From Candidatus Falkowbacteria bacterium LH_S3 (GTDB lineage: Bacteria; Patescibacteriota; Patescibacteriia; Patescibacteriales; JAGXOH01), in assembly GCA_023659985.1 (NCBI GenBank), contig JAGXOH010000002.1, forward strand, positions 1 to 45,903: 45,903 nucleotides of DNA, written 5' to 3'. Made by a program: the position numbers and the translations under genes. Below, one piece after another: positions 3,579 to 42,409 of the stretch (the stretch's first letter is position 1; each line of letters starts with the position of its first letter). Under the pieces are notes generated by a model that saw nothing but the letters and a program-made list of their open reading frames with translations, was not told the origin of the DNA and searched no databases.

Positions 3579-3652
3579 GGGCCTATAGCTCAGTTGGTTA
3601 GAGCGCCTGCATGGCATGCAGGAGGTCACCGGTTCGAGTCCGGTTAGGTCCA
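3579..3652 (+). tRNA. tRNA-Ala(GGC)
   Basis: Hand fold: acceptor GGGCCTA/TAGGTCC with the G3:U70 alanine identity pair, anticodon stem CCTGC/GCAGG, loop ATGGCAT (anticodon GGC), and T-arm CCGGTTCGAGTCCGG. No encoded CCA. Confidence 0.85.
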
Positions 3653-3924
3653 CAGTGCGATTAATTACTATTATTTTTAAAGTTTTTGTATAGTTTTATG
3701 TAATGATTAATATTAACCATTACATTGATAAGCCGTTTCTTTATAAACCCAAAATCAAGTATACAAGGGCTTTTAGTAGACGTTTTTATAAATTTAAGAC
3801 AAAAATATAAACAATAAAAGTATAAAAAATAGGGAAACAAAAAAATACAGTTTTTAATTTCCCTATATTAAATTTTATTTTTAGAATCAATCAAACTAAT
3901 CTTGTTTTACTTTAAAAATAAAGT

Positions 3925-4302: not shown

Positions 4303-4326
4303 TGTTAGGCAAACATTATGCTAATG

Positions 4327-4731
4327 TTAGGAAATATATTTACTGTATTGCTCTTTTTCTTTACGAATTTCAATGCGTTTAGATAGAGTTTTAAAAAGCT
4401 TGATTATAAAAAATAACCATATTGCCATTTCTAAAAACCATATCACAAACCAAAAACGAGACGAGAAAAAGGGGATTGTTTGGTAATTAAAAAACCAAAT
4501 CAACCCCCCTAAAACAGTATTGGTTATAGAAAAATAGTAAAGTTGCCTCCAGGCTAGTAAGAATTGATTTTTCTTTCTTTTTTTATTTTTCTTTTTTAAA
4601 TAAAATAAAGAGGTGAAAATTAAAAATAAAACAATTAAAATTATAAGCGTATATTCATAAATATTCATTAATTGTCCCGTTCTCATATCTAACCAAAAGT
4701 TCCAACTAATCAATTTGTCAACAATCTCCAT
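4327..4731 (-). CDS. Hypothetical membrane protein
   Basis: 134-aa ORF with several hydrophobic helices and a basic loop (KKKNKKRKKN). No recognisable family. Confidence 0.5.
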   Translation of the reverse strand: MEIVDKLISWNFWLDMRTGQLMNIYEYTLIILIVLFLIFTSLFYLKKKNKKRKKNQFLLAWRQLYYFSITNTVLGGLIWFFNYQTIPFFSSRFWFVIWFLEMAIWLFFIIKLFKTLSKRIEIRKEKEQYSKYIS

Positions 4732-4767
4732 AAAATTTGAATTTTGAAATTATAAGCACTTAACTAT

Positions 4768-5319
4768 TTATTTAATAAATAAGGCTCCATAATGATATGT
4801 TCCTGCCTCAAATTCTTCTTCTAAGGACAACCCTAACTTTTGAATACTTTGTTTTAAGGATTCTTTTTTAACCTTAGCTTCGGCAGGTGGTCCAATAGGA
4901 GTTGCAACATTCTTCCATTCCACGATCAGTAAATAGCAACCCTTTTTGATTAATCTTATGCTTTCTCGTAGTAATGCAGCTCTTTGCTCTGATTGATATA
5001 AAGTATTTATTAGCAAGCCAACATCTAATGATTCTGATTCAATTTTGGTTGCTTTAAATATTTCTAGGTCACTCCATACAGTTTCTATATTAGTATATCC
5101 TTCTTGCTCAATCCTTTTATTTAGATTAGTTAATACACTTTTCATTATATCCACTGCATACACTTTACCTTTATTTCCAACAATTCTGGCTGCTGGGAAT
5201 ACAAATTGTCCGGCAGAGCCGCAACCCAAGCCAGCTATTGAGTTACCTTCTTTTACTTGAGCCTTTTCTAAAATAAAATCTGGGTTTAGCAAATAGGCTC
5301 CACCTGTTTTTTCGTTCAT
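4768..5319 (-). CDS. Class I SAM-dependent methyltransferase
   Basis: Motif I-like GLGCGSAGQFVFPAA followed by VYAVDI (acidic post-I residue). The size is typical. Confidence 0.7.
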   Translation of the reverse strand: MNEKTGGAYLLNPDFILEKAQVKEGNSIAGLGCGSAGQFVFPAARIVGNKGKVYAVDIMKSVLTNLNKRIEQEGYTNIETVWSDLEIFKATKIESESLDVGLLINTLYQSEQRAALLRESIRLIKKGCYLLIVEWKNVATPIGPPAEAKVKKESLKQSIQKLGLSLEEEFEAGTYHYGALFIK

Positions 5320-5378
5320 ATTTATTAAGAATTATTAATATTATTATATTATAATTATTTTTCTAAGTAAATAAGACT

Positions 5379-6079: not shown

Positions 6080-6544
6080 TTATTTATTCCAGTCCGTGTT
6101 TAAGATATCACTATTCTTGGCTCCTAAGGATTGAGCTGTAAAATTAACTATTATGTAGCTGGAAAAAATAATAACTAAACCAATCACGGCGCCAACCAAT
6201 GCTTTTTTACCGTTTTCTATTGTTTCAGAATTACCACCAGATAACAAAAGCAAAAAACCGCCGTACATAAAAGCCAATAAAGCAAGAGCGCCAACAATAG
6301 CTAAAACAAAGTTAAAAATATTGACTCCTAACCGAATAAAATCATTAAGTTCACAATCACCACAGGCGCGACACTTTTGCATATCGGCCCAAATACTATT
6401 TTCTGAAGTTTCTATAGTTCTTTTTTTTCCTCCTTCCACGCACGTTTTTGTTGTTTCTCCGGCTATTGTTTTTTCAGGAGATCCTATTAATATTAACATT
6501 AGAATTACTCCTAAAATAAGGATTTTATTTATTTTGCTAAACAT
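6080..6544 (-). CDS. Cys-rich TrbC/VirB2-like (Patescibacteria T4SS-pilin-like) small membrane protein
   Basis: Signal peptide, then a Cys-rich segment (CVEGG...CRACGDCE), then two hydrophobic helices separated by GGNSETIENGKKA. This is the same topology as the six paralogues at 24.6-27.4 kb. Confidence 0.55.
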   Translation of the reverse strand: MFSKINKILILGVILMLILIGSPEKTIAGETTKTCVEGGKKRTIETSENSIWADMQKCRACGDCELNDFIRLGVNIFNFVLAIVGALALLAFMYGGFLLLLSGGNSETIENGKKALVGAVIGLVIIFSSYIIVNFTAQSLGAKNSDILNTDWNK

Positions 6545-18820: not shown

Positions 18821-19150
18821 GAAATGTCATACAATAAAATCCAAATGACAAAGTCCTAATGTCAAATATCAAAGCTTAAAACTTAAAGCTAAAAACTAAA
18901 AACTACAACTTAAAATTAAAAATTAAAAACTACAACTTAAAACTTCTTACTTTTTACTTCTTACCTCTTACTTTTTAACAATGTTTTAATTCAGTTTTGA
19001 ATTTTGAGTTTTGGTTTTGCGTTTTGCGTTTTGAGCTTTGAATTTCAACTATATTTCATTTATCATTAGGATTTTGGATTTCATTTGTCATTAGGATTTG
19101 GTCATTGGTCATTTATTTTAATAAAGTCCTAATGTCAAATGTTGTAACCT
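18821..19150. repeat. Full copy of the long palindromic low-complexity repeat: A-rich arm, TCTTAC-type centre, T-rich arm
   Basis: Left arm aaatccaaatgacaaagtcctaatgtcaaat...aaaacttaaagctaaaaactaaaaactacaac. Centre ttcttactttttacttcttacctcttactttttaacaatgttttaattca. Right arm gttttgaattttgagttttggttttgcgttttg...ggattttggatttcattt, roughly the reverse complement of the left arm. An 18-nt direct repeat aaagtcctaatgtcaaat occurs at 18850-18867 and 19123-19140. Confidence 0.85.
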
Positions 19151-24633: not shown

Positions 24634-25047
24634 TTATGGGGGATAGCTTTGTCCCCCTCCGTTTGTGGTGCTATGATGCAGAGCTCCAAGCACGAAAGAG
24701 GTTATGGCATAAGCCATCATTATTATTACTAAACCTATTATTGCGTGTTTAATTTGGCTTTTTGCTTTATTTAGTTCTTCTTCATTGCCTCCAGCTGTCA
24801 TCCATCTATAACCGGCAATTAAAATTAAAATTATGAAAATAATACCCAGTAAAGACAGAATCGCCCCTATTGCGGTAGCTATTATCCCACCAACAGTGGT
24901 ATCATTGAAGCCGGATTTGGTTTTAAAACTTTCGGTTTGGTTATTAAGCTCGGTAGTGTTAATAAGATTGGCTTGGGCACAAGAAAGAAATCCGCCTGAA
25001 GCAAGAACGATTGCAGTTATAAGAAAAAATTTTTTAAGAAAATTCAT
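24634..25047 (-). CDS. VirB2/TrbC-like pilin paralogue 6 (Patescibacteria T4SS-pilin-like)
   Basis: Signal peptide, N/T-rich variable segment, then GGIIATAIGAILSLLGIIFIILILIAGYRWMTAGGNEEELNKAKSQIKHAIIGLVIIMMAYAITSF. Confidence 0.7.
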   Translation of the reverse strand: MNFLKKFFLITAIVLASGGFLSCAQANLINTTELNNQTESFKTKSGFNDTTVGGIIATAIGAILSLLGIIFIILILIAGYRWMTAGGNEEELNKAKSQIKHAIIGLVIIMMAYAITSFVLGALHHSTTNGGGQSYPP

Positions 25048-25066
25048 ATTAATTTTTGCTAAAATA

Positions 25067-25513
25067 TTAACTTCCTAAAATCAGGTTTTCTAAAATAAAA
25101 GTCCATATAGCGTAAGAGCCGACTACTATGATAAGACCGATTATAGCATGCCTGATTATACTTAGACCTTCTTTTGCCCTTTCTTCATTGCCTGAAGCTG
25201 TCATATATTTAGTTCCTCCTGTAATAGTTAAGATAATAAATATAATTCCAAGTAAGCTTAAAAATCCCTTGACAGCAGTACCTAAAATTTCTGAAACAGT
25301 GGTTTGGTCATTTTTCTTATAACCTCCTTCTGAGCCAGAACCGACATTTTCCAATCTTGTCGAGGCAGAGGGCATACTTTCCGAGGCAGGGGACTCATCG
25401 TTGCTCCCCCTGGCTGTATTAATAAACAAAAAAGATGGAGCAATTAAAACCCCTACTAAAGATACTAAAACAAGAAAATGTTTCAAGTGTTGTTTCTTTT
25501 CAAGAATAGACAT
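25067..25513 (-). CDS. VirB2/TrbC-like pilin paralogue 5
   Basis: Signal peptide, S/E/G-rich variable segment, then LGTAVKGFLSLLGIIFIILTITGGTKYMTASGNEERAKEGLSIIRHAIIGLIIVVGSYAIWTF. Confidence 0.7.
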   Translation of the reverse strand: MSILEKKQHLKHFLVLVSLVGVLIAPSFLFINTARGSNDESPASESMPSASTRLENVGSGSEGGYKKNDQTTVSEILGTAVKGFLSLLGIIFIILTITGGTKYMTASGNEERAKEGLSIIRHAIIGLIIVVGSYAIWTFILENLILGS

Positions 25514-25527
25514 GTGGTTTAATATTT

Positions 25528-25989
25528 TTATTTTAAAGTGTTCTCTCCTAGTTGTTCTATGACTAACACGCTAATAGCATAGGCGGCAACTACTATAATA
25601 AGGCCGATGGTGGCTTCAGTTAATATTTTTTTGGCTTCGTCTACTTTTTCTTCATTGCCTCTGGCTATCATCCATAAAAATCCGCCATAGATCATGAGTA
25701 TAAGGAAAATAACACCTAAAAAAGATAAAGCGGCTTGAATAGCAGTTTGTATAATTGGATTAGGGGATGTTTTGGAAGTATCATAACCAGCCTTTTTGGC
25801 AGCGCTATCAAGAGGGTCATTGTTACTTCCATCACTTATTTGAAAGGCATTTTGGAGACTATCTCCCCCATTATCTCCCCCATTATCTGCATTAACAGAA
25901 TTCAAAGGAAAAATTAAAGATATTGCTATAATAGTAATAAGAATCGGGAATAAAAAAATTTTTTTTGGGAGTTGGTGCTTTGAAAACAT
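25528..25989 (-). CDS. VirB2/TrbC-like pilin paralogue 4
   Basis: Signal peptide, DNGGDNGGDS repeat-containing variable segment, then ALSFLGVIFLILMIYGGFLWMIARGNEEKVDEAKKILTEATIGLIIVVAAYAISVL. Confidence 0.7.
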   Translation of the reverse strand: MFSKHQLPKKIFLFPILITIIAISLIFPLNSVNADNGGDNGGDSLQNAFQISDGSNNDPLDSAAKKAGYDTSKTSPNPIIQTAIQAALSFLGVIFLILMIYGGFLWMIARGNEEKVDEAKKILTEATIGLIIVVAAYAISVLVIEQLGENTLK

Positions 25990-25999
25990 ATATTTAATA

Positions 26000-26389
26000 T
26001 TAAATAAAATTCTTTCCTATAAAAGCTGTTATAGCATAGGCGGCAACTACTATAACAAGGCCGACAATGGCACCAGTTAATATTTCTTTGGCTTTGCCTA
26101 TTTTTTCTTGATTTCCAGCAGCTGTCATCCATAAAAATCCACCATAGATCGTGAGCAACAGAAAAATAACTCCTATAAAAGATAAAATTGCGCCAATTAT
26201 AGAACCTATTGCTCCTGGAAGTTTTCCTGGGCTGAATATTTCCATCTCTTCATGACCAGTACTTTTTGCAGTAGATTTTATTCCGCTGTCTTTTGTAAAA
26301 TCAAAACTTTGAGCAAAAAGAGGCATTACCAATAAAATACCTGTTAGTGTTGAGAAACACATTAAGCGAAGTTTTGCCTTTAAAAACAT
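26000..26389 (-). CDS. VirB2/TrbC-like pilin paralogue 3
   Basis: ILSFIGVIFLLLTIYGGFLWMTAAGNQEKIGKAKEILTGAIVGLVIVVAAYAITAF. Confidence 0.7.
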   Translation of the reverse strand: MFLKAKLRLMCFSTLTGILLVMPLFAQSFDFTKDSGIKSTAKSTGHEEMEIFSPGKLPGAIGSIIGAILSFIGVIFLLLTIYGGFLWMTAAGNQEKIGKAKEILTGAIVGLVIVVAAYAITAFIGKNFI

Positions 26390-26429
26390 AGGATTATCTG
26401 TCTTTTAAAATATTAGTCAAACAACAACT

Positions 26430-26837
26430 TTAGGTAAGTGCGCCTCCGATAAAGGAAGTAATAGCATAGGCAGCTAAAACTATAATAAGGCCGATGATGG
26501 CTGATATTATTAAATTTTTAGCTTTACTGATTTGGGTCTCATTGCCGGCAGCTGTCATCCAGGTGATACCTCCGTAAATTATTAATACAAAAAATAATAT
26601 TCCGATAAAAGATAAGGCTGCACCCACTACGGTTCCTATTATATCAGGCACCTCCTGGTTTTTAAAGTGAGCAAGATCTCCGAAAGCTTTTTGGGCTGCC
26701 TTGTCCAAGCCGTGATTTTCGTTTCCACCGTCTTTAGCACTTTCTTGAGCTTTTGATATTAAAGGAGAAAAGCTAAAAATTACCGCAAATAAAGGTAGGA
26801 GCGATTTTATTTTTTTAACAAAATAATCCGTGTTCAT
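26430..26837 (-). CDS. VirB2/TrbC-like pilin paralogue 2
   Basis: ALSFIGILFFVLIIYGGITWMTAAGNETQISKAKNLIISAIIGLIIVLAAYAITSF. Confidence 0.7.
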   Translation of the reverse strand: MNTDYFVKKIKSLLPLFAVIFSFSPLISKAQESAKDGGNENHGLDKAAQKAFGDLAHFKNQEVPDIIGTVVGAALSFIGILFFVLIIYGGITWMTAAGNETQISKAKNLIISAIIGLIIVLAAYAITSFIGGALT

Positions 26838-26850
26838 ACTATGTTTTTAT

Positions 26851-26916
26851 CAGCTCTTTTCACTGCCGGAACAGGTAAAATTTATCTGCTCAGGCAGTGA
26901 AGCCTTGTTTTCCCCC
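26851..26916 (-). other. Two adjacent strong stem-loops in the 131-nt spacer between pilin paralogues 1 and 2
   Basis: cactgcc...ggcagtg (26851-26889, extendable) and the perfect 10-bp stem gtgaagcctt/aaggcttcac (26887-26916). Neither strand has a following U-run. Confidence 0.5.
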
Positions 26917-26968
26917 AAGGCTTCACCAATTTTACTAACAGTAATTAGACTAGAGGTGATAGCATTCA

Positions 26969-27373
26969 TTAGGTGGTGGTAGCATTCATTAATTGACTGA
27001 GCACGAATTTGGCTATACCCCAGGCCGCTAAAATGATAACCAAGCCAACGACTCCGGCTATAATAATTTGTTTAGCTTCTCCAACTTTCTCGTCATTGCC
27101 GGCTGCTGTCATCCATTTAAACCCTCCGATTAAAATGATAACAACCGCTAAGATAGCCAAAAAACCTAAGGCAATATTGATAATACTGGCGATAATATCT
27201 CTGGGATCCCTTTCACCCAATTCGGTTGCTTCTCCATAGGGCATACCGACATCATTCTCGTTTAGGGCCAGTGCCTCCGGAGTTTGTCCTGTCGGTATAG
27301 TGGCTAATACCGGAGTGATAATCAGCAAAGCCATTGCTAAGCCTATTAGTTTTTTTACCATTTTTTCTTTCAT
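26969..27373 (-). CDS. VirB2/TrbC-like pilin paralogue 1 (first gene of the array)
   Basis: ALGFLAILAVVIILIGGFKWMTAAGNDEKVGEAKQIIIAGVVGLVIILAAWGIAKF. Confidence 0.7.
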   Translation of the reverse strand: MKEKMVKKLIGLAMALLIITPVLATIPTGQTPEALALNENDVGMPYGEATELGERDPRDIIASIINIALGFLAILAVVIILIGGFKWMTAAGNDEKVGEAKQIIIAGVVGLVIILAAWGIAKFVLSQLMNATTT

Positions 27374-31979: not shown

Positions 31980-32056
31980 GGGCCGTTAGCTCAGTTGGCT
32001 AGAGCACCTGCTTTGCACGCAGGAGGTCAAGGGTTCGAGCCCCTTACGGTCCACCA
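31980..32056 (+). tRNA. tRNA-Ala(TGC), CCA encoded
   Basis: Acceptor GGGCCGT/ACGGTCC with G3:U70. Anticodon stem CCTGC/GCAGG with loop TTTGCAC. T-arm AGGGTTCGAGCCCCT. Confidence 0.9.
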
Positions 32057-32101
32057 ATCGCAATTTTCGCCGTTTTGGGAAAGGATTGTCTCATGGTTTT
32101 G
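32051..32101 (+). repeat. Direct repeat copy 1 (last 6 nt of tRNA-Ala plus 45 nt of 3' flank)
   Basis: ccaccaatcgcaattttcgccgttttgggaaaggattgtctcatggttttg. Copy 2 at 33787-33837 differs at 2 of 51 positions by hand alignment. Confidence 0.85.
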
Positions 32102-32215
32102 AGCTTTAAGCTTTGACATTTAAACTTTGAAATCCAAAATCCAAAATCCTAATGCCAAATGAAATCCAAAATCCAAATGTTGTCAAACTTAAAGGCTGAA
32201 TTAACGCTTGAAATG
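32102..32215. repeat. Short copy of the low-complexity palindromic repeat family
   Basis: agctttaagctttgacatttaaactttg followed by aaatccaaaatccaaaatcctaatgccaaatgaaatccaaaatccaaatgttgtcaaacttaaag. The final 27 nt (32168-32194) are repeated at 33877-33903. Confidence 0.7.
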
Positions 32216-32268: not shown

Positions 32269-32994
32269 ATGTATAAACATATTAAACAAAATGATCGTGT
32301 TTGTATAGCTCTAATGTTAAGACAAGCACACACAAAAACACAAATAGGTAAAGAATTGGGTTTTGATAGAAGTACAATCTCAAGAGAGATAAAGAGAAAT
32401 AGTAAAGGTAAAGATAGAATATATAAAGTTTCTTGGGCCAACAAACAAGCCAAAGATAGAAGGAAATTATCTAAAGTTAATTATCGAATAATTGATAACG
32501 ATTTAAAACTTCAACTTTCGAAAGAAGAAATAATCTCATTGATTTATGAGTATCGAAAAGCGAGCAGGGGCTGGCTTCGTTTGTATCCAGGAGTTTTCGA
32601 TGTCCTTTCAAGGCTTTCGAAAGAATATATATTGTCAACAGCAAGCCATACGCAAGGTTGTTTTACACAAATAGAATTGCAAGAGATGGATATTGAGCAA
32701 TTTTTCTCTCACTTTATATACACTTCGGATATCGGATTCCGTAAAGAGTCTGTTGATTTTTATAAAAGCGCTCTAGAAATTGTCGGAAAAAAGCCAACAG
32801 ATTGTTGGATGATTGGAGATAATTACGATGTGGATGTGCTCGTTCCGCAATCGTTAGGAATAAAAGCGGTTTGGTTAAAAAATCCCGCCACGAGCGATAG
32901 ATACGCCGAATATATTAAGGGGCGAAAACCGCAAAATAGTATTGACCTTGAGAATATTAGAGAGCTACCGGATTTAATTGACTCCATAGTATAA
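32269..32994 (+). pseudogene. Chimeric ORF: IS30-family transposase N-terminal HTH fused to the C-terminal part of a HAD-superfamily hydrolase
   Basis: Residues 1 to about 83 (IALMLRQAHTKTQIGKELGFDRSTISREIKRNSKG...WANKQAKDRRK) match the IS30 transposase N-terminus and resemble the IS30-like N-terminus at 45550. The remainder (YILSTASHT..., GFRKES, WMIGDNYDVDV) carries HAD motifs II-IV but no motif I DxD. Confidence 0.6.
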
Positions 32995-33026: not shown

Positions 33027-33614
33027 ATGATTGATTTCAAAAATATAAAAGCAATTGCGTTCGACTTCTGGGGAGTATTTGCCGAAATGAATCCACCCAT
33101 GTACGAATATATGAAGCAACACAACATTTTACTGGAGAAATATTCGGAAAAAATTCACGAGCTTATTGTAGCGTATGACCTTAACAATCTTACCGAACAA
33201 CAGTTCCTGAAAGAATGTTCGAAAATAATAGGACTTGAAATTCCATATCCATTATGCCGTTATATATATCATGAAGACGTTTTGAACGAAAATTTAATCG
33301 CCGTTGTTAAAAAATTAAAAGAAAGATTTAAGATTGCTCTATTGTCAAATAACAACAAAGAATATTGCGAGGAGTATTTGTTTCGGCCTGGGCTCGATAA
33401 GTTTTTTGATATTATGGTTATTTCATACCAAGTTGGCTATCGCAAGCCGGCTCCGGAAATTTATCAGATTTTAATCAAAAAGCTAAATCTAAGACCAGAA
33501 GAAATTTTATTCGTTGATGACGACCCAACGAAACTTCCAGCTGCGGAGGCACAAGGAATTAAAACGCTTGTTTACAAATGCGGAGAAACAGATAGAATAT
33601 TGTTGAGTTTGTAA
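33027..33614 (+). CDS. HAD-superfamily hydrolase (subfamily IA-like)
   Basis: Motif I-like AIAFDFWGVF (second Asp replaced by Trp), motif II ALLSNN, motif III GYRKP, and motif IV LFVDDD. Confidence 0.8.
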   Translation: MIDFKNIKAIAFDFWGVFAEMNPPMYEYMKQHNILLEKYSEKIHELIVAYDLNNLTEQQFLKECSKIIGLEIPYPLCRYIYHEDVLNENLIAVVKKLKERFKIALLSNNNKEYCEEYLFRPGLDKFFDIMVISYQVGYRKPAPEIYQILIKKLNLRPEEILFVDDDPTKLPAAEAQGIKTLVYKCGETDRILLSL

Positions 33615-33786
33615 CGGCGCGCCCGCGAAGCGGGTCGAAAGCGAGGGCGGGCAAAAATTCCTTCCCCTCAACCCCCTTCCTTTTTGTCCGCCCGAGCGTT
33701 CAGTTTCGGTTCTGCCGTCCCGCCAAAGGCAGGAGCAATCAGTCGGGATTTTGTTCAAAATGAGTTCTGACTTTTTCCAACAAACA

Positions 33787-33837
33787 CCACCAATCGCAAT
33801 TTTCGCCGTTTTGGGAAAGGATTGCCTCGTGGTTTTG
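33787..33837 (+). repeat. Direct repeat copy 2 of the tRNA-Ala 3' end/flank
   Basis: ccaccaatcgcaattttcgccgttttgggaaaggattgcctcgtggttttg. Confidence 0.85.
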
Positions 33838-33873
33838 CCGCTCGGCATTCGGTCTTTACGCCTTGCGCAAAGC

Positions 33874-34173
33874 CATAAAATCCAAATGTTGTCAAACTTA
33901 AAGCTTAAAATTAAAAGCTAAAAATTACAACTTAAATCTTAAAATTAAAAGTTCAAATACTTAATAAAATCCTAATGTCAAATGTCAAAGCTCAAATGTC
34001 AAATGAAGATCAAATGACTAAATGTCATATTTAATGTCAAAACTTAAAGCTAAAAACTAAAAACTACAACTCAAAACTTAAAATTTCTTACTTCTTACTT
34101 CTTACTTTTTATCTCTTATTTCTTAACAATGTTTTAATTCAGTTTTAAATTTTGACTTTTGGTTTTGCGTTTT
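33874..34173. repeat. Full copy of the long palindromic low-complexity repeat (A-rich arm, TCTTAC centre, short T-rich arm)
   Basis: aaaatccaaatgttgtcaaacttaaagcttaaaattaaaagc ... aaaacttaaagctaaaaactaaaaactacaactcaaaac, then tttcttacttcttacttcttactttttatctcttatttcttaacaatgttttaattca, then gttttaaattttgacttttggttttgcgttttg. Confidence 0.85.
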
Positions 34174-34280
34174 GAACGGCGATTCCCTTTCCCCTTGAGT
34201 CCCTTTTCCTCGCCGCAGCCGCCTTCGCATTGCTCGCCCCGCCATTCGGCGGGGCTCGCTCTTTTTCAAAAAATTCCTTC
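34174..34280 (+). repeat. GC-rich inverted repeat, left copy (IR-L), bounding the hydrogenase cassette
   Basis: gaacggcgattccctttccccttgagtccc...gccccgccattcggcggggc...ctttttcaaaaaattccttc. Its reverse complement matches 37972-38078 with about 5 mismatches in 107 nt by hand alignment. It contains a terminator-like hairpin at 34236-34255 followed by a T-run. Confidence 0.9.
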
Positions 34281-34360: not shown

Positions 34361-34597
34361 ATGTGTATTAATATTCCGGGTAAAGTTATTTTAATAAAAG
34401 AGGAAAATGCCAAAATAAAACAAAGGGGGCATTTTCATTGGGTAGACATCTCTTCACTTAAAGATGAGGTTAAAAAAGGAGATTATTTGCTTACTTATCA
34501 AGAGGCAGCAATTAACAAAATCTCTCCAAAAAATGCCAAGGAGATTTTAAGACTAATGGACAGCACAAGTGATGCAGGGGTCAAATGCTCTAATTAA
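34361..34597 (+). CDS. hypC: HypC/HupF-like hydrogenase maturation chaperone
   Basis: N-terminal MCINIPGKV (HypC signature MC[LI]xxPG with Cys2) and C-terminal GDYLLTYQEAAINKISPKNAKEIL (GDxVLVHxGxAI..I-like). The 3' end overlaps the convergent hydrogenase gene by 45 nt. Confidence 0.7.
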   Translation: MCINIPGKVILIKEENAKIKQRGHFHWVDISSLKDEVKKGDYLLTYQEAAINKISPKNAKEILRLMDSTSDAGVKCSN

Positions 34598-36250
34598 TTG
34601 CTCAACTTGCTTTTTTATTTGCAGAGGTGGAACTCCTTCTCTTTTTTTAACCAATTCTTGAGTCTCTTTCTCTAAAGAAGCTAAGTTAATTTGGGTTGGG
34701 GGGATAATATTGTAATCAATTATTTTTCCTTGAGAATCAATCTTTATTTGGTGGAATAGAATACCTCTGGGAGCTTCCAAACATGCACTACCAGAAAGCT
34801 TTTTTGATGGAAGGTTTTCTTTTTCAATTCCTTTTGATTTTTTCAAATCTTTTTCTGATATTTCTTCAATCAAATTTATTGTTTCCTCGAGGAAATGCAA
34901 AATCTCAATTGCTTGGGCTAAATTATTGTTAAAAGGATTATTGAGGTCAGGTTGAAGTTCTTGGAAGGCCTTCTTAGCTTTTGGGTTAAGAACTTTAGAA
35001 AAATGGCTGAGTCGGGATAGGGCTCCAACTTTTATTATTTCTCCTTTTTTTAAAATTCCTAGTTTTGCGGAAGAATCTTTTCTTACAATTTCTTTAATTG
35101 ATTTGGAAAAATTGCCAGGGTAAGAGGGGTAAAAACCTTGGACGGGAGTAATAGTTTCAAGCCGGCTATTAACCTTTAAGCTTGGAGTTTCAAGAGTTGA
35201 GAAAAGCTTTATTAAATCTTGGGCTTCATCAATAACTTCAAAAATTGAATTTCTAATTACTAAAAGCTCATCCATTTTTGGGGGAGTCCTAAATCCTCCT
35301 AATATTGTATTGGAGGGAAAAGCAGAAGATCCGCCAACAACTTCTAATATATTATCGGACACTTTTTTTAAGTTCAGCATTAAATGAAATTCAGCTGGAT
35401 ACTTTTTACAGAGTTCAACTGAGCCTTTAACGCCAGCATAATCTGGCAGAACTAAAAAGAAAAGATGTAAAAGGTGGCTTTTGAGAATTTGACTAGCCAG
35501 AAGAATTTTTCTTAAAATTGTTGTTTCTTGGGAAATTTTAACTCCTAAGGCGTCCTCCAGAGCAGACCAAGAACAAAGATTGTGAGCTACTGGACAAATC
35601 CCACAGATGCGAGAAGTATTAAAAGGAGCTTGTTGAAAATTCTGGCCCAAAACTAATCCCTCAACCAATCTTTCGCTTTCCTCGACTTCAAACTTAACCC
35701 TTTGTTCTTTAAAATTAATCTTTAAAACTCCGTGCCCTTCAATTTTAGCAGTGAAGTCAGGAAGAGTAATTTTTTTGATTTTTGAAACATTTTTTTCTTT
35801 CTTAATTTTTTCTAAAAGTTTTTTAACGAGTTCAATATCCGGCGGGCATCCAGGAATTTTTTCATCTACTCTAATAAATTTTTCTACTGGTTCTAAAAAT
35901 TTTGCCTTTAACTGGTAATTTTTATCATAGATTTTTGCAGCAAGTTTTTTTCTTTTTCCTTTGGATAATTGGGCAAAAATATTTCCAGAAATTGCGCAAG
36001 CTCCTAAAGCGACAACAATTTTTGAAGTTTCTCTAATTTGCTTGAGTAAATTAATCTGCTCTTTGGTAGTAACTGCTCCTTCTATAAAAGCAATGTCAAA
36101 ATTAGCGGGTTTTTTTTCTGAAAGCAATCGCCAATTAGTTATTTCAAAATCCTGAAAGAATTCGAGTAAAAGTTCGTCTAAGGAAAGAAGATGAAATTCA
36201 CATCCCTCACATCCAGTAAGGTCAAAAATTGCGATTTTTGTCTTTGTCAT
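34553..36250 (-). CDS. Single-polypeptide [NiFe]-hydrogenase: NuoB-like small-subunit domain (one proximal-cluster Cys set) fused to the large catalytic subunit
   Basis: Residues 1 to about 150: DLTGCEGCE, ALGACAISGN and IPGCPPD (four Cys of a proximal 4Fe-4S site). Residues about 165-565: KIEGHGVLKI, L1 motif RICGICPVAH, and C-terminal L2 motif DPCITCAVH immediately followed by the stop codon. Confidence 0.85.
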   Translation of the reverse strand: MTKTKIAIFDLTGCEGCEFHLLSLDELLLEFFQDFEITNWRLLSEKKPANFDIAFIEGAVTTKEQINLLKQIRETSKIVVALGACAISGNIFAQLSKGKRKKLAAKIYDKNYQLKAKFLEPVEKFIRVDEKIPGCPPDIELVKKLLEKIKKEKNVSKIKKITLPDFTAKIEGHGVLKINFKEQRVKFEVEESERLVEGLVLGQNFQQAPFNTSRICGICPVAHNLCSWSALEDALGVKISQETTILRKILLASQILKSHLLHLFFLVLPDYAGVKGSVELCKKYPAEFHLMLNLKKVSDNILEVVGGSSAFPSNTILGGFRTPPKMDELLVIRNSIFEVIDEAQDLIKLFSTLETPSLKVNSRLETITPVQGFYPSYPGNFSKSIKEIVRKDSSAKLGILKKGEIIKVGALSRLSHFSKVLNPKAKKAFQELQPDLNNPFNNNLAQAIEILHFLEETINLIEEISEKDLKKSKGIEKENLPSKKLSGSACLEAPRGILFHQIKIDSQGKIIDYNIIPPTQINLASLEKETQELVKKREGVPPLQIKKQVEQLIRAFDPCITCAVH

Positions 36251-36336
36251 ATTATATTCATTTTATCATCTATGGAGATATTTTTCCAACTTTGCTATAC
36301 TAAAAAAAGAAGTGAAATTTAATCGAAAATAAACTT

Positions 36337-37245
36337 ATGAGAAAAGGCTATTTTTTAGTTTTTGTAACCGCCCTTATTTCCGGATTTGCTATTTTTATTA
36401 ATAAATTTGGAGTAAGTGTAGTTAATCCTGATATTTACACTTTCTTGAGAGTCTTAACTGTTGCTATTTTCTTAACCGGCTTGCTTTTATTTTTGAAAGA
36501 TTGGCAGACATTAAAGAATCTAACTGGAAAACAATGGCTCTTATTAATTACAATTGGTTTGGTTGGTGGAAGCATTCCTTTTTTACTCTTCTTCAAAGGG
36601 ATTTCTATAACCAATGCTGCTCAAGGCTCCTTTATTCATAAAACAATGTTTATTTGGGTGGCAATTTTAGCAACTTTGTTTTTGAAGGAAAAAATTGAAA
36701 AAAAATTCTTGTTGGGCGGATTGTTCTTACTCTTGGGGAATCTAATCTTATTAGAAAAATTACCTCATTCATTTAATCAAGGAGATTTATTAGTTTTTTT
36801 AGCTAGTTTGCTTTGGGCTACAGAAAATACGATTTCAAAATATGTCTTAAGAGATTTGGGAGGCAGAATTGTTGCCTGGGCAAGGATGTTTTTCGGCGCT
36901 TTATTTATTTTGATATTCTTGTTGGCAACCAATCAATTTCCTTTAATTTCTGGTCTTACATTAGGACAGATTAATTGGGTTTTAATAACAGCAGTTATTC
37001 TATTTGGTTATGTAATGACCTGGTATAGTGGTTTGAAATTTATCCCGGTTTCTCAGGCAACAGCAATTTTACTCCTTGGTTCCCCGATAACCACTTTATT
37101 GTCATTTATTCAGACGGGGCAAGTAAGTTTTCAAGAAATTTTTTCCGGCTTCTTCATTATTTTAGGAATACTTCTAGTTTTTGGATTAAAAGAAGTGTGG
37201 CGTTTATTCAAGGAATTTAAAAAACTATTTTATGTCTGGACTTAA
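36337..37245 (+). CDS. EamA/DMT-superfamily transporter
   Basis: 302 aa, about 10 TM helices in two similar halves, typical of the EamA duplication. Overlaps the next ORF by 14 nt. Confidence 0.75.
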   Translation: MRKGYFLVFVTALISGFAIFINKFGVSVVNPDIYTFLRVLTVAIFLTGLLLFLKDWQTLKNLTGKQWLLLITIGLVGGSIPFLLFFKGISITNAAQGSFIHKTMFIWVAILATLFLKEKIEKKFLLGGLFLLLGNLILLEKLPHSFNQGDLLVFLASLLWATENTISKYVLRDLGGRIVAWARMFFGALFILIFLLATNQFPLISGLTLGQINWVLITAVILFGYVMTWYSGLKFIPVSQATAILLLGSPITTLLSFIQTGQVSFQEIFSGFFIILGILLVFGLKEVWRLFKEFKKLFYVWT

Positions 37246-37972
37246 GTTGGCAGCTCTTTGTGGATTTTATCCCCACAAACTTGGTTTTTGCGGACTTCAA
37301 GAAAACTCAGCGAAGAAAAACCTTTTGAGTTATCTTTCTGGAGAAAAAATCCCTGAGCAAAAAATCAGAAAAATTTTAGAAACTTTTAAAGGAGCTTTTT
37401 CTTATTATAAATTAATTGCTAAAAGTAATGGAATTGAAGACCCTTTTGATGAAAAAGTAGTTAAGGCTTACTGGTTTGGCAATCAACTTTTAGAAAAGGT
37501 TCCGGTTGATTCCCTAAAAGAGATGATTATCAAAGAGTTCGTCGGACCTGGTTTTCTTTCAAAAAAAATGGCTGAGAAAAAAGCCAGAGAAATCTCTTTT
37601 ACCTCAAAAGCCCATCACAGTTTCCATGTTCTAGTTATAGGTTCGGTGAGTGGTCGGATAATGCTTGAGGGTAAGTTGTTAGATCTTTGTCGGATTGCTT
37701 GGGGAAAGGTAATAGGATACAAAAAGGGGGAAACAGAAAATGCAAATAAGATAATTATTGAATATCACCCCCTCCAAAAGAAAAGAGGGAAATATTCTTT
37801 AGGAGGACCAATCCATAAAATTGTGTTTTGGGAGAAAAAATTTATACCAGAGATTAAAATCGGAGATAAAGTGGCGATTCATTGGAATCATATTGTGCAA
37901 ATTCTTGATGCAAAAGATTTAATCAATCTCAAAAAATACACTCAAATTACAATAGATTCTCTAAATAGTTAG
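37232..37972 (+). CDS. Conserved-looking hypothetical protein with a HypC-like C-terminal segment
   Basis: 246 aa. The N-terminus has LAALCGFYPHKLGFCG. The C-terminus IGDKVAIHWNHIVQILDAKDLINLKKY resembles the HypC GDxVLVHxGFAI..ID..EA motif. Translationally coupled to the EamA gene. Confidence 0.6.
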   Translation: MSGLKLAALCGFYPHKLGFCGLQENSAKKNLLSYLSGEKIPEQKIRKILETFKGAFSYYKLIAKSNGIEDPFDEKVVKAYWFGNQLLEKVPVDSLKEMIIKEFVGPGFLSKKMAEKKAREISFTSKAHHSFHVLVIGSVSGRIMLEGKLLDLCRIAWGKVIGYKKGETENANKIIIEYHPLQKKRGKYSLGGPIHKIVFWEKKFIPEIKIGDKVAIHWNHIVQILDAKDLINLKKYTQITIDSLNS

Positions 37973-38078
37973 AAGGAATTTTTTGAAAAAGAGTGAGCCC
38001 AGCCGAATGGCGGGGCGAGCAATGCGGAGGCGGCTGCGGCGAGGAAAAGGGGTTCAAGGGGAAAGGGAATCGCCGTTC
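37972..38078 (-). repeat. GC-rich inverted repeat, right copy (IR-R)
   Basis: gaaggaattttttgaaaaagagtgagcccagccgaatggcggggcgagcaatgcggaggcggctgcggcgaggaaaaggggttcaaggggaaagggaatcgccgttc. It begins at the last base of the upstream stop codon. Confidence 0.9.
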
Positions 38079-38495
38079 AAAACGCAAAACTCAAAGTTAA
38101 AAACGCAAAACCAAAAATTAAATGAAATCCAAAATCCAAAAAATATGATTGAAACGCAAAACTCAAAGTTAAAAACGCAAAACCAAAAGTCAAAACTTAA
38201 AACCAAAAATTAAATGAAATCCAAAATCCAAATGCCAAATGAAATCCAAATGACAAAGCTCAAATACTTAATAAAATCCAAATGACATACAATAAAATCC
38301 TAATGACAAAATCCTAATGTCAAATGAAGGTCAAATGACTAAATGACAAATGACAAAGCTTAAAACTTAAAGCTCAAAATTTAAAACCAAAAATTAAATG
38401 AAATCCAAAATCCAAATGCCAAATGAAATATAGTTGAAACTCAAAGCTTAAAATTAAAAGCTCAAAATTTAAAACTGAATTAAAATATCGTTCAG
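38079..38495. repeat. Expanded A-rich arm of the palindromic repeat family (inverted relative to 34120-34173)
   Basis: aaaacgcaaaactcaaagttaaaaacgcaaaaccaaaa...aaatgaaatccaaaatccaaa occurs twice in tandem, followed by further AAATCCAAA / CAAATGAC / CTTAAAGCT words. It ends aaaactgaattaaaatatcgtt, the reverse complement of the centre motif aacaatgttttaattcagtttt. Confidence 0.85.
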
Positions 38496-38607
38496 AAATT
38501 TTAAGATTTAAGTGTTACAATTGAAACTAAATAGATATATTGAACGCAAAAAAATTAATAATTTTGTATCATCAACCATACATATATAAAATAATTAGAA
38601 AAAATAG

Positions 38608-38694
38608 GCCCAGGTGGCGGAATTGGTATACGCGCATGGTTTAGGACCATGTGCCTTTATAGGCTTGGGAGTTCAAATCTCCCCTCGCCCACCA
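38608..38694 (+). tRNA. tRNA-Leu(TAG)-like gene with a poorly paired acceptor stem (possible pseudo- or chimeric tRNA)
   Basis: The D-arm, anticodon arm (CATGG-TTTAGGA-CCATG), variable arm (GCCT/AGGC) and T-arm (GGGAG-TTCAAAT-CTCCC) are good, and ACCA is encoded. The 5' strand GCCCAGG against the 3' strand CTCGCCC gives only 3 Watson-Crick pairs plus 1 GU out of 7 in my hand fold. Confidence 0.6.
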
Positions 38695-38777
38695 AAATAA
38701 TTAAGCGAAGTTTATTAAATCAGAGCTTTGCTTAATTGCTGAAGATTAAAGTTGAAAGCTAAAAGAATACCTAAATT

Positions 38778-40367
38778 ATGCAGACACAAAAACAATTAGT
38801 TACAATCAAAGAAGCAAGTCGGTGGGCTACTGATCATCTTAACAGAGACGTGAGTGAGTCCAATATTTCGTACTTGATTCAATATGGAAATGTCAGAAAG
38901 TATAATAGTGACAGTTCAACCTTAGTAAATCTTGACGATTTGCAAAAATACTACCAACCCTATCATAGCAAAAGAGAAATAAGTTGGAAAAAACGCCTTG
39001 GAGATGATTTGAATTGGGCTTTATCCTTTGATCATCTTCGAGAAAAAGATACAACAAAACATGTTCATCGCCTTCATCCATACAAAGGGAAATTCATTCC
39101 TCAGCTTGTTCAATATTTTATTGATGATCACACTGATAATTTTAAAAAAAATACATATTTCAAACAAGGAGATATTATCCTTGATCCATTCTCTGGTTCT
39201 GGGACCACTTTAGTTCAAGCAAGTGAAATGGGTATTCATTCAATTGGAATTGATATTTCACAATTCAATTGTATGATTACTGATGCTAAGCTACACAAAT
39301 ATGATTTTGACTCATTAAATCAAGAGATAAAGTGTGTCAAAAAAGCGCTTGCAGATTTTGAATATGATAGCAATGTTTCTACTTTTGAATCAGAGCTTCT
39401 GCAAAAAATGAATAAGTTTAATTATGAGTATTTTCCAAGCCCAGATTTTAAGTATCAAATACAACAAGGAAAGATTGATGAAAATAGTTATTCCAAAAAT
39501 AAAGAAAAAGAATTTTTAAAAATTTATAATAGTTTGGTAAAAAAATATGAGATTGAGCTGAATCATAGAGTCAGCGAGTCGTTCCTAGATGAGTGGTATA
39601 TAAAAAATGTTAGAAAAGAAATTAATTTTACATTTGATTTAATAAAACAAATTAAAGATATCAAGAATAAAAAAGTTCTTGCTGTAATTTTAAGTCGAAC
39701 TATTAGATCTTGTCGGGCCACTACCCATTCTGATCTTGCAACTCTAAAAGAACCCCAACTTACCACTTATTATTGTTTTAAGCATAAGAAAATTTGTAAG
39801 CCACTTTTTTCTATCAAATACTGGTTTGAAAGATACGCAAATGATACGCTAAAACGTCTTAGAGATTTCGAGCGTTTAAGAACACAAGCGCATTTTTCTG
39901 TTTTGTCAACAGATTCTCGCGCAGTAGATATTTTTACAGAAATAAAGAAACGAAATAAAAAATTGTATGAACAATTAAAGAAGCAGAAAATCCGCGGCAT
40001 CTTCACTTCGCCTCCGTATGTAGGACAAATTGATTATCACGAACAACATGCTTACGCCTATGATCTTTTCGGTTTTGATCGTCAAGATAATTTAGAGATT
40101 GGCCCTTTGTATAAAGGACAAGGCAAAGAGGCTCGCAATTCGTATGTTAAGGGAGTTTCAGATGTTTTACTCAATTGCAAAAAATATTTAACGGATAATT
40201 TTGATATATTTCTTGTTGCAAATGATAAATACAATCTTTATCCGATTATAGCAGAGCGATCGGGTATGCAGATTGTTAATAAATTTAAACGGCCAGTTCT
40301 AAATAGAACCGAACGAGATAGGTTGCCCTATTCGGAAATAATTTTTCACATAAAAAATACAAAATAA
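38778..40367 (+). CDS. Type II DNA amino-methyltransferase (SPPY-type, possibly N4-cytosine) with motif I upstream of motif IV
   Basis: AdoMet motif GDIILDPFSGSGTTLVQASEMGIHSIGIDI near residue 130. Catalytic motif IFTSPPYVGQIDY near residue 410. N-terminal HTH-like LVTIKEASRWA. Confidence 0.85.
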   Translation: MQTQKQLVTIKEASRWATDHLNRDVSESNISYLIQYGNVRKYNSDSSTLVNLDDLQKYYQPYHSKREISWKKRLGDDLNWALSFDHLREKDTTKHVHRLHPYKGKFIPQLVQYFIDDHTDNFKKNTYFKQGDIILDPFSGSGTTLVQASEMGIHSIGIDISQFNCMITDAKLHKYDFDSLNQEIKCVKKALADFEYDSNVSTFESELLQKMNKFNYEYFPSPDFKYQIQQGKIDENSYSKNKEKEFLKIYNSLVKKYEIELNHRVSESFLDEWYIKNVRKEINFTFDLIKQIKDIKNKKVLAVILSRTIRSCRATTHSDLATLKEPQLTTYYCFKHKKICKPLFSIKYWFERYANDTLKRLRDFERLRTQAHFSVLSTDSRAVDIFTEIKKRNKKLYEQLKKQKIRGIFTSPPYVGQIDYHEQHAYAYDLFGFDRQDNLEIGPLYKGQGKEARNSYVKGVSDVLLNCKKYLTDNFDIFLVANDKYNLYPIIAERSGMQIVNKFKRPVLNRTERDRLPYSEIIFHIKNTK

Positions 40368-40368
40368 T

Positions 40369-41145
40369 ATGGCACTATCAAAACAGCAGAGTAAAGAAAT
40401 AAAGGAGTATCTCGTTGGAAAAATACGGTGGAAGTTAGATAATTATAATCCTGAAACAAACGCAATGCCTTTCCATTATCGCTTGCTTGGGAAAGATCGC
40501 ATAGCTTTGTTTTCTTTTATTCATTCTGTGAATACTACACTTGGGACTTCAATTTTTGAACAAGTTGGTGCAATGATAGCAAAGCCACATACAAAAAGAA
40601 CAATCGGACAATATAAAGAGTTTGAGGGATTTGTTAGTAGCGAGGTAGTACTTACGATAGACACAATCATGCGGGAATTGCGCGCGGCTTCTCGTAAGCC
40701 AAATAAGCCAAAAGAAACAGAGGAAGTACTTGCTGCGGTTAAAAAAGGAAATCAAGGAAAGAAAATGAAAAAGCGAGTGGATTTATTTGTGAAGATGAAA
40801 GACAACACTGAATACTATTTTGAATTGAAATCTGCCAAGCCGAATATCAATGAATTTACTGGAATTAAAAAACAAATGCTTGATTGGATAGCTATGCGCG
40901 GAAGCCAAAAACCAAACGCAAAAGTAAAAACTATTGTCGCTATTCCATACAATCCATATGAACCCCAGCCATACGAACGATGGACACTTCAAGGACTTTT
41001 TGATTTGAACGAGGAGGTATTAGTAGGTAAAGAATTTTGGGATTTGTTGGGTGGAAAAGATACTTATGAGGATTTATTAAAGGTGTTTGAGCAAGCAGGA
41101 TTAGAGCTTTATGACGAAATTGACCGAAAAAAAAAATTTGAATAA
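40369..41145 (+). CDS. Putative type II restriction endonuclease (PD-(D/E)xK; TdeIII-family-like by recollection)
   Basis: Starts 1 nt after the methyltransferase stop codon. Candidate catalytic triad RVDLFV ... YFELKSAKPN (D ... ExK). The N-terminal HSVNTTLGTSIFEQV segment resembles proteins annotated as the TdeIII family. Confidence 0.55.
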   Translation: MALSKQQSKEIKEYLVGKIRWKLDNYNPETNAMPFHYRLLGKDRIALFSFIHSVNTTLGTSIFEQVGAMIAKPHTKRTIGQYKEFEGFVSSEVVLTIDTIMRELRAASRKPNKPKETEEVLAAVKKGNQGKKMKKRVDLFVKMKDNTEYYFELKSAKPNINEFTGIKKQMLDWIAMRGSQKPNAKVKTIVAIPYNPYEPQPYERWTLQGLFDLNEEVLVGKEFWDLLGGKDTYEDLLKVFEQAGLELYDEIDRKKKFE

Positions 41146-41490
41146 CGGAAATTAGTATTTTGTTATGTATTTTTTATATGCTCTCACAAATAATTCAATT
41201 CGTCTTGATCTAAAATGAAAGTAGGGACTTTCCGACTTTTTAAGAATCTGTTAAAAATATATAGTAGAGATATAATAATACAATTAAAAAGGGGGAACCA
41301 AACTATTATACTTTATTATTGAGATTATGTTTGGATAATCCACGCAAATTTATTGAATATTTATCTAACAAAGGAATCCCATCAGATATAATTAGGTATA
41401 ATTGCAAGCCATTAGACCTGTTGTTTAATAACAAAAATATTGTAAAATAATGATATAAAAAGTGTTTTTAAAAGTTAATTTTTAATTATT

Positions 41491-42409
41491 ATGATGAATA
41501 TTAATAAAATATTAAAGAATAAACGTTTAACATTAGCCTTAACCGGGCTTACTCCACAAGAATTTTTAAATCTGTTATCACCCTTTGCTCAAACTTGGCA
41601 AGATTTAAAGCAAGAAGATTATCAAAAAAATAGAAAACAGAGGAAACGTAAACTAAGTGGAGGCAGAAAGGGCTCTTTAAGAGAGATGGAAGACAAATTA
41701 TTGTTTATTCTATTCTATTATAAATGTTATCCAACTTATGGAGTGCTAAGTTTTCTCTATGGTTTTGATAGAGCGAACGGGTTTAGAAGACAAGAGCAAA
41801 TAACCAAAGTATTGGAAAAAACTCCCCGCAGAAAGCTGTTTTACCTGAAAGGAAATTAGAGAAAGCTGAAGAATTCTTTGAGACGTTCCCCGAGATCAGA
41901 GAGGTATTTATAACTGAAAGACAGACTCAGAGACTCAGAGACTCAAGGACTCAAAACAACAAAGAGATAAATACTCTGGTAAAAAGAAACGACATACTGC
42001 AAAGAATATTGTCATATCAAACAAGAAAAAACAAATATTGTTTTTGAGTAAGACCGAAGGAGAAAGACAACATAGTTTTTCAATGTTAAAAGAACACGCT
42101 CCGCCTCTGGAAAATACCAATCACGATTGAGCAGCTTTAGACTTGGGTTTTAAGGGATATCGCGCTCAGTTTCCTAACCACAAAATATCAATACCAGAGA
42201 GAAAACCTAGAACCAAGGAACTTTGCAAGACTAAAACAGAGCAAAACAAGAGAAAATCAAGAACCAGAGTTTTGGTGGAACACGCTACCCCCGCTGTAAA
42301 AAGATTCAGAATCACAACAGATGTATTTCGTAACAAAGTGAATGGCTCAGATGACAAAGCAATGTCCATTTCCTGCAGACTTTGGAATTACCATCTCTTA
42401 ATGAGTTAA
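41491..42409 (+). pseudogene. Degraded IS5/Harbinger-like (DDE_Tnp_4-type) transposase gene
   Basis: HTH_Tnp_4-like N-terminus (LTLALTGLTPQEFLNLL...KLLFILFYYKCYPTYGVLSFLYG). The middle part YSGKKKRHTAKNIVIS...GERQHSFSML lies in another frame. An in-frame TGA precedes ALDLGFKGY...RVLVEHATPAVKRFRI. Confidence 0.7.

Follow-up and report, generated by a model that had tools for sequence, protein, structure and literature searches.

The window analyzed in this study, a stretch of 45,903 nucleotides, comprises positions 1 to 45,903 of contig JAGXOH010000002.1 of Candidatus Falkowbacteria bacterium LH_S3 (assembly GCA_023659985.1), and the gene in question is an open reading frame (ORF) on its minus strand that encodes a [NiFe]-hydrogenase as a single chain. 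The original prediction, made from the nucleotide sequence without database searches, had placed the small and the catalytic subunit of this enzyme in one polypeptide of 565 amino acids. The features of the ORF, in window coordinates, are as follows.

34553 to 36250, minus strand: single-chain [NiFe]-hydrogenase, whole ORF, 565 amino acids, ATG start, stop codon at 34553–34555
35801 to 36250, minus strand: small-subunit (delta or NuoB-like) domain, residues 1–150, Pfam Oxidored_q6, with the proximal [4Fe-4S] cysteines C14, C17, C85, and C135 only
35756 to 35800, minus strand: Lys-rich linker, residues 151–165, in place of the medial/distal-cluster domain, as aligned with the small subunits of the related loci L019 and L018
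34556 to 35755, minus strand: large (catalytic) subunit domain, residues 166–565, with IEGHG, RICGICPVAH (C216, C219), and DPCITCAVH (C559, C562, and H565 as the last residue)

Pfam scans placed an Oxidored_q6 domain (PF01058; E-value 3.8e-22; 78.8 bits against a cutoff of 27) at residues 14–147 and a NiFeSe_Hases domain (PF00374; E-value 9.2e-33; 114 bits against a cutoff of 25.8) in the same chain, in agreement with the predicted union of both subunits. The motifs named in the prediction were all present, with CEGCE (C14, C17), GACA (C85), and GCPP (C135) in the small domain and EGHG as IEGHG (171–174), RICGICPVAH (214–223), and DPCITCAVH (557–565) in the large domain, and the codon for His565 directly precedes the stop codon, also as predicted. 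Residues 1–138 aligned to residues 1–139 of the 261-amino-acid delta subunit of Pyrococcus furiosus SHI (E-value 5e-27), and because the alignment is confined to these residues, the part with the medial and distal clusters is absent; the claim that only the four cysteines of the proximal cluster are present thus held. In the alignment with the small subunits of L019 (166 amino acids) and L018 (260 amino acids), the small subunit is cut right behind the helix that comes after the fourth cysteine. These data demonstrate that the N-terminal part is a group-3b-type delta subunit without the C-terminal ferredoxin-like domain, in which the N-terminal domain of the proximal cluster is retained, and that this small domain is joined in frame to the alpha N-terminus via a linker of about 15–25 residues. 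An AlphaFold2 model of the protein, built with 59 sequences, reached a mean pLDDT of 85.5 and a pTM of 0.89, with low pLDDT at residues 166–172, and its best Foldseek match was the alpha subunit of P. furiosus SHI (9nf0_H; target-normalised TM-score, 0.84). On the basis of the pTM value, the model suggests that a heterodimer-like interface may form within the single chain.

A homologue search that covered 5.8 billion proteins yielded more than 110 full-length homologues carrying both Pfam domains in a single ORF, with 43–88% identity, from sources labelled Microgenomates, Pacebacteria, Nealsonbacteria, Falkowbacteria, and other Patescibacteria. Residues C14, C17, C85, C135, C216, C219, C559, C562, and H565 were invariant in 109 of the 109 aligned full-length homologues, as were the conserved Glu, Arg, and His residues, and the histidine was the exact C-terminus in 115 of 115 motif-containing sequences. 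When 1.84 billion cluster representatives were searched exhaustively with HMMER, the fused proteins made up only about six clusters at 50% identity; next came unfused large subunits of 415–425 amino acids (42–45% identity), which also end at the histidine, and more distant group 3b enzymes bore tails of 4–10 residues behind it. As judged from this conservation, the ORF is a real single-polypeptide [NiFe]-hydrogenase on which purifying selection acts.

Against the NCBIfam alpha-subunit profiles, residues 162–565 scored 214 bits with ShyA, 213 with HydA, 129 with FrhA, and 107 with VhuA, without reaching the equivalog cutoffs of ShyA and HydA (700 and 880 bits), and residues 3–150 matched HydD and ShyD over no more than the initial ~140 of the 261 profile positions, with scores far below the equivalog cutoffs. 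The closest solved structures were P. furiosus SHI alpha (9e15, 9nez; E-value 3e-56) and T. kodakarensis HyhL (5yxy). The profile scores, together with the PDB and Foldseek matches, place the catalytic part nearest to the group 3b sulfhydrogenases. The protein departs from that group in its equivalog score, in the lack of linked beta and gamma genes, and in the lack of a three-cluster, 12-cysteine delta subunit of about 250–260 amino acids. NuoB profiles gave at most 33 bits (cutoffs of at least 116), and Pfam scans of the window detected no membrane (NuoH/L-like) or NuoI-like gene, which would mark group 4.

Beside group 3b, Jaffe et al. (2020, BMC Biol, PMC7304191) described hyd2, a long branch specific to bacteria of the candidate phyla radiation (CPR). 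Its truncated one-cluster small subunit (mean, 164 amino acids) is separately encoded, hypC lies nearby, beta and gamma are missing, the function is uncertain, and the distribution is patchy and looks laterally transferred (PMC7304191). The window protein resembles hyd2 in being 3b-related, in its four-cysteine small domain of ~150–160 residues, in the adjacent HypC, and in the lack of beta and gamma. It differs in being one polypeptide, whereas the small subunit in PMC7304191 is separate and the words “fusion” and “fused” are absent from that paper, in which two further neighbors described below, DUF6390 and EamA, are not recognised as linked genes. About 40 stand-alone small subunits of 154–179 amino acids form a family fitting the hyd2 description, and the fused form is at least as numerous in the databases as hyd2 with a separate small subunit. 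In a neighbor-joining (NJ) tree calculated without the sequences of Jaffe et al., fused and split truncated forms fell in one region, with deep nodes at 54% bootstrap or less. Taken together, these data indicate that the window gene is a hyd2-type, 3b-related CPR minimal hydrogenase in single-chain form and not a wholly new class; the suggestion of a new compact hydrogenase class has to be given up, as the protein is nearest to group 3b and appears to belong with the hyd2 clade. No description of a natural small–large [NiFe] fusion was found in the literature searched, outside of which most subscription journals lay, and as far as could be searched the single-chain form of a hyd2-type hydrogenase is not described. 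The clade and its truncated small subunit are already known, and the single-chain form is widespread and uncharacterised.

The prediction had also regarded the extension-less ending as unusual and as a feature of sensory and some energy-converting hydrogenases. Among 75 related large subunits from CPR, DPANN, Altiarchaeota, and Desulfobacterota genomes, obtained in a scan that favored DPCITCAV-type ends, 74 ended at the histidine, members of four-subunit operons included. The missing C-terminal extension is therefore clade-wide, is not tied to the fusion, and is no pointer to a sensor. Since the alpha part ends at the histidine, it has no site for a maturation endopeptidase.

Among the window ORFs, Pfam scans found hypC (34361–34597) and no hypA, hypB, hypD, hypE, or hypF. 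This had been predicted correctly, and the absence appears to be only local: directly upstream of the orthologue in L001, whose hydrogenase is 87% identical, lie hypE (ending PRIC), hypD (PF01924, 491 bits), and a second, canonical hypC, with a YrdC-family gene beside them. The hypCDE genes are also present in the unfused CPR loci L042, L043, and L057, and HypF is reduced to Kae1-like domains of 373–409 amino acids in L042 (14232–15461, minus strand) and L057 (6789–7910, minus strand), the reduced HypF of CPR hyp clusters being without acylphosphatase, zinc-finger, and YrdC domains. The view that the lack of hyp genes is a true oddity is weakened by these loci; because hypC, hypD, and hypE adjoin the 87%-identical orthologue, ordinary maturation is likely. 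The L001 hypC, hypD, and hypE genes (2953–5321) are 79–91% identical at the protein level to Aenigmarchaeota (DPANN) proteins (L086–L088), which reflects either recent inter-domain transfer or mis-binning; a scan with a single HypD protein returned close relatives only, mostly from Aenigmarchaeota. In three independent lineages, a stand-alone Sua5/YciO/YrdC gene lies within ~3.5 kb of the fused hydrogenase gene, which suggests, from gene content, that HypF is split into separate Kae1-like and YrdC-like proteins. The stand-alone Sua5/YciO/YrdC genes are as follows.

L001, 2010 to 2639, minus strand
L185, 6888 to 7493, plus strand
L025, 7106 to 7753, minus strand
L069, 11780 to 12385, minus strand

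The hydrogenase gene belongs to a cassette of which the prediction had named HypC and overlooked the EamA and DUF6390 genes. The further features of the cassette are as follows.

34361 to 34597, plus strand: HypC-family chaperone, 78 amino acids, N-terminal Met-Cys; Pfam HupF_HypC, E-value 1.6e-14; TIGR00074 above cutoff
36337 to 37245, plus strand: EamA-family (DMT) membrane transporter, divergent from the hydrogenase; Pfam EamA, E-value 4e-36
37232 to 37972, plus strand: DUF6390 protein, 246 amino acids; Pfam PF19927, E-value 2.7e-40
36251 to 36336, no strand assigned: divergent intergenic region of 86 nt between the hydrogenase and eamA-DUF6390, with promoter-like hexamers on both strands (consensus matches only)
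34150 to 34280, no strand assigned: left arm of an inverted repeat, 131 nt, GC hairpin followed by a T-run
37972 to 38102, no strand assigned: right arm of the inverted repeat, 131 nt, 94% complementary to the left arm, beginning at the DUF6390 stop codon

The hypC gene is convergent with the hydrogenase gene, and their 3' ends overlap by 45 nt (34553–34597). An overlap of this type is kept in L001–L004, L013, L014, and L016 and hints at antisense or translational coupling. The eamA and DUF6390 genes overlap by 14 nt and probably form an operon. Among the first 14 related loci, HypC was found in 11, DUF6390 in 8, and EamA in 5, with no other recurring neighbor family, and HypC was met next to the hydrogenase in many further loci. 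The same trio stands beside many unfused CPR enzymes as well, and all three DUF6390 genes that were picked independently of hydrogenases sit in EamA-DUF6390-small-large clusters. The DUF6390 family, so far uncharacterised, occurs in CPR and DPANN genomes in tight linkage with 3b-type hydrogenases and EamA (the window; L017, L100–L102, L183–L185), and no paper on it was found in the literature searched. Its alignment contains the invariant residues C20, H128, H129, C153, H217, and W218. In an AlphaFold2 model (pLDDT of 92), the C-terminal OB-fold domain matched HypC (3vyr_A, 2z1c_B; Foldseek probability, 1.0), and the helical N-terminal domain found no Foldseek match among solved structures. 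We infer that DUF6390 is a candidate maturation accessory, acting either as a chaperone for extension-less large subunits or as a metal-delivery factor. Metal-handling genes (HMA P-type ATPase, cation ATPase, CutA1) adjoin the cassettes of L015 (2934–5171), L101 (11836–14527), and L102 (4492–4800) and may relate to metal supply.

The 131-nt inverted repeat brackets exactly hypC-hydrogenase-eamA-DUF6390, each arm containing a GC hairpin by a T/A run. Copies of the repeat element adjoin the cassette in L001, L013, and L014, and not in L002. The repeat could mark the boundary of a mobile cassette, serve as an inversion substrate, or act as a bidirectional terminator; the non-coding flanks matched no Rfam family and gave only marginal folding z-scores. 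The region in which the cassette lies is variable and contains transposase remnants, tRNA genes, and a restriction-modification pair. At 38607–41859, a tRNA-Leu gene is followed by an N6/N4 DNA methylase, a TdeIII-type restriction endonuclease, and a DDE-transposase HTH remnant, and this segment beside the cassette looks like a variable or island-like region.

The contexts of the related loci can be ordered as a series of stepwise reduction. In L018 the operon is canonical and unfused, with the order beta-gamma-delta (257 amino acids)-alpha; L017, L100, L101, and L102 have a full-length delta and an alpha without beta and gamma; L019 has a separate four-cysteine small subunit of 166 amino acids and an alpha of 416 amino acids; and the fusion of the window follows. 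Unfused small subunits have 240–280 amino acids and 12 cysteines, whereas the fused small domains have ~155–160 amino acids and four cysteines. Proteins of the same architecture (587–619 amino acids) were also found in Desulfocapsa and other Desulfobacterota, on contigs of up to 388 kb. There the fused gene is monocistronic, and its neighbors are unrelated and variable, an arrangement that speaks for a self-sufficient module. Inspection of the small domain, the linker, and the first ~110 residues of the large domain revealed no extra Fe-S motif in the Desulfobacterota versions that are richer in cysteine. The NJ tree gave 100% bootstrap support to the CPR fused clade and to the Desulfobacterota fused clade and 54% to their sisterhood, and a second fused group (P0241, P0242, P0245, and L020) was unplaced. 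With the sisterhood at only 54% and the deeper nodes unsupported, one or several fusion events would fit the tree. The patchy spread over many CPR lineages and Desulfobacterota looks like horizontal transfer, and the inverted repeat, the variable region, and the archaeal-like hypCDE of L001 fit lateral mobility, in agreement with the published patchy distribution. The predicted horizontal acquisition in a reduced genome is supported by the patchy spread and by the inverted repeats near tRNA and restriction-modification genes; the link to reduced genomes was too narrow, since the fusion is also found in Desulfobacterota.

Several known systems share individual traits with the window protein. 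P. furiosus/Thermococcus SHI is the best match for both halves (~32% identity in alpha), and it differs in its three-cluster delta, in its beta/gamma NADPH-diaphorase, in its separate polypeptides, and in a 4-residue C-terminal extension of the alpha precursor (428 versus 424 amino acids when mature). One-cluster small subunits function in group 3d HoxY, in HydS of HydABCSL, and in group 4 enzymes. HoxY, HydS, and NuoB of group 4/complex I resemble the window protein in a small subunit cut to the proximal-cluster domain, and one-cluster small subunits were matched as PDB entries 5xf9_C (189 amino acids) and 7t2r_E (179 amino acids). However, these are separate polypeptides that always have a co-encoded multi-cluster partner (HoxU/F, HydABC, or HycF/NuoI-type), and no such partner is linked here. 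The NuoB-C-D (Fqo/Nuo BCD) fusions likewise have a small-subunit homologue N-terminal to a large-subunit homologue (PRK13292 match; PMC11237513), but with a NuoC domain in between, without a NiFe site, and in a membrane complex. Beta-gamma sulfhydrogenase fusions are a further known analogue. Minimal [FeFe]-hydrogenases (algal M1; ultraminimal archaeal, PMC11216029) also have a core stripped of accessory clusters and receive electrons from ferredoxin, but they belong to an unrelated superfamily, and the analogy would be functional only.

The reading that we favor, in which we have about even confidence, is that of a soluble, stand-alone hydrogenase in direct electron exchange with ferredoxin or pyruvate:ferredoxin oxidoreductase (PFOR), matured via its own HypC and probably DUF6390. 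The protein would be cytoplasmic and, in fermentative CPR bacteria, would most likely evolve H2. The NiFe site and the proximal cluster would exchange electrons, and the loss of the shielding medial/distal domain would leave this cluster uncovered; because the cluster is without this shield, direct exchange with a soluble carrier may take place, either with a 2x[4Fe-4S] ferredoxin or with PFOR itself, and the NAD(P)H-linked beta/gamma module of the sulfhydrogenases would be bypassed. The HypC paralogue of the cassette would serve in maturation, probably along with DUF6390 as a large-subunit chaperone or nickel-delivery factor accompanying extension-less enzymes, and the genes for HypC, HypD, HypE, and a reduced HypF would lie at other sites of the genome. 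The best experimental precedent for direct exchange is an engineered alpha-delta dimeric form of P. furiosus SHI, which is active and takes electrons straight from POR without ferredoxin (PMC4620386). In ~25 fused loci, no beta/gamma, ferredoxin-like, or membrane subunit genes were found within ~10 kb, and Pfam scans of the window ORFs revealed no beta/gamma diaphorase, ferredoxin, PFOR, or nickel transporter. This accords with the original prediction, which had seen no linked diaphorase or cytochrome partner.

Several points weigh against the favored reading. The roles given to DUF6390 and EamA derive from gene linkage and fold; hypD, hypE, and hypF are shown for one fusion-carrying genome only; a ferredoxin or PFOR gene is not linked, apart from a 63-amino-acid Fer4 gene 9 kb off in one locus; and a thioredoxin-reductase-like flavoprotein of the Pyr_redox_2 family, a possible partner, is encoded near some related loci. 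A bolder form of the same reading is a truly autonomous single-chain [NiFe]-hydrogenase in which the proximal cluster alone would pass electrons to ferredoxin or PFOR, maturation would be protease-free, DUF6390 would replace the checkpoint of the C-terminal extension or the nickel delivery by HypA/HypB, and HypF would be split into YrdC-like and Kae1-like proteins; we put this forward only tentatively, as a possibility on the doubtful side.

The main rival explanation, which we consider unlikely and yet worth serious attention, is that the fused protein supplies only the catalytic core and works within a larger complex, linked to NAD(P)H or thiols, whose partner is encoded elsewhere, with a Pyr_redox_2 flavoprotein or an unlinked Fe-S protein docking on the proximal-cluster face in the manner of HoxU/HoxF or beta/gamma. 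It is established that every characterised group 3 hydrogenase feeds a partner module. In L100 the large-subunit gene is directly followed by a Pyr_redox_2 gene, in L183 such a gene lies ~5 kb away from the fused one, and an FAD/NAD(P)-binding family, “fam013”, was reported near some hyd2 genes (PMC7304191). However, the window contains no Pyr_redox_2-type gene, no such family recurs over the first 14 related loci, unrelated genes flank the Desulfobacterota orthologues, and Pyr_redox_2 proteins are without an Fe-S relay.

An H2 sensor (regulatory hydrogenase) in place of a metabolic enzyme, as the prediction had also proposed, is very improbable. The missing C-terminal extension, as in group 2b, the Ile in the CGIC motif, and the lack of an evident redox partner would suit such a role. 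Yet the first of these traits is clade-wide, four-subunit enzymes included, and so is not diagnostic; the best matches are to group 3b and not to group 2; and no group 2 affinity, three-cluster small subunit, or recurring histidine kinase or regulator linkage was seen, histidine kinase, PAS, and response-regulator genes not being consistently linked. In addition, CPR genomes generally have few H2-dependent pathways to regulate. Equally remote is a hydrogenase-like protein of different or degenerate function, for example, one without the NiFe(CN)2CO cofactor like the Ehr-type proteins, an idea for which the absence of hypD, hypE, and hypF from the window and the lost metal ligands of CPR Ehr-type group 4 relatives (PMC7304191) can be cited. 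Against it stand the full invariance of the NiFe cysteines, the Glu, Arg, and His residues, and the cluster cysteines over all 109 homologues, the linkage of a dedicated HypC with Cys2, and the hypCDE genes adjacent in L001.

That two genes were united into one by an error of sequencing or assembly has a negligible probability, since the two overlapping ORFs in the homologous contigs L015 (P0110) and L016 (P0106), the only layout in its favor, are frameshifts in the small domain, and the fusion is uninterrupted on over 100 independent contigs, which come from numerous studies and phyla, with the metal-binding cysteines aligned in all 109 full-length homologues of the alignment. By comparison of these contigs, the fusion is no assembly error. 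The two-gene layout of L015 and L016 was also considered as an ancestral unfused state and rejected, because the frameshift lies inside the small domain, with the GCPP cysteine encoded by the second ORF; the junction was read directly in L015, and L016 was judged by its like overlapping-ORF layout. Both split copies are taken to be errors or pseudogenes.

To our knowledge, no [NiFe]-hydrogenase characterised so far is simpler than a heterodimer, and all of them undergo elaborate maturation, a complexity by which heterologous production is hampered. If the favored reading is true, a one-chain, one-cluster, protease-free protein would be the simplest known [NiFe]-hydrogenase, and the 565-amino-acid chain with its three helper genes (hypC, DUF6390, and eamA) would lend itself well to expression and engineering work. 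Such a protein would also shed light on the ways in which reducing power is used or discarded by ultra-small CPR bacteria and by some Desulfobacterota, would assign a function to DUF6390, and would document the stepwise reduction of a redox complex from four subunits to two, to a truncated pair, and to a fused chain.

Other observations concern the remainder of the window. An AT-rich satellite-like repeat (AAAACTTAAAGCT... type) with a 13–14-nt period occupies several of the genome's intergenic regions, at the following positions.

1 to 144, 18822 to 19120, 32051 to 32194, 33884 to 34092, and 38093 to 38500: AT-rich satellite-like repeat

Between a HAD hydrolase gene and these repeats lies a GC-rich non-coding stretch (33612–33880) with a folding z-score of -2.4 and no Rfam match at E<=1; a 51-nt piece of it (33787–33837) is repeated with 96% identity at 32051–32101, from the 3' end of tRNA-Ala. 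The T4SS_pilin family (PF18895) is represented by six tandem paralogues of 129–153 amino acids at 24634–27373 (minus strand) and by another at 6080–6544 (minus strand). A 570-amino-acid protein encoded at 143–1855 (minus strand) has the unusual combination of an N-terminal rubrerythrin and a complete UDP-glucose/GDP-mannose dehydrogenase. The ORF at 32269–32994 (plus strand) unites an HTH_38 N-terminus of the IS30 type with a HAD-hydrolase domain; a second HAD hydrolase gene follows it, and the ORF may be a chimera that arose from a transposase remnant.

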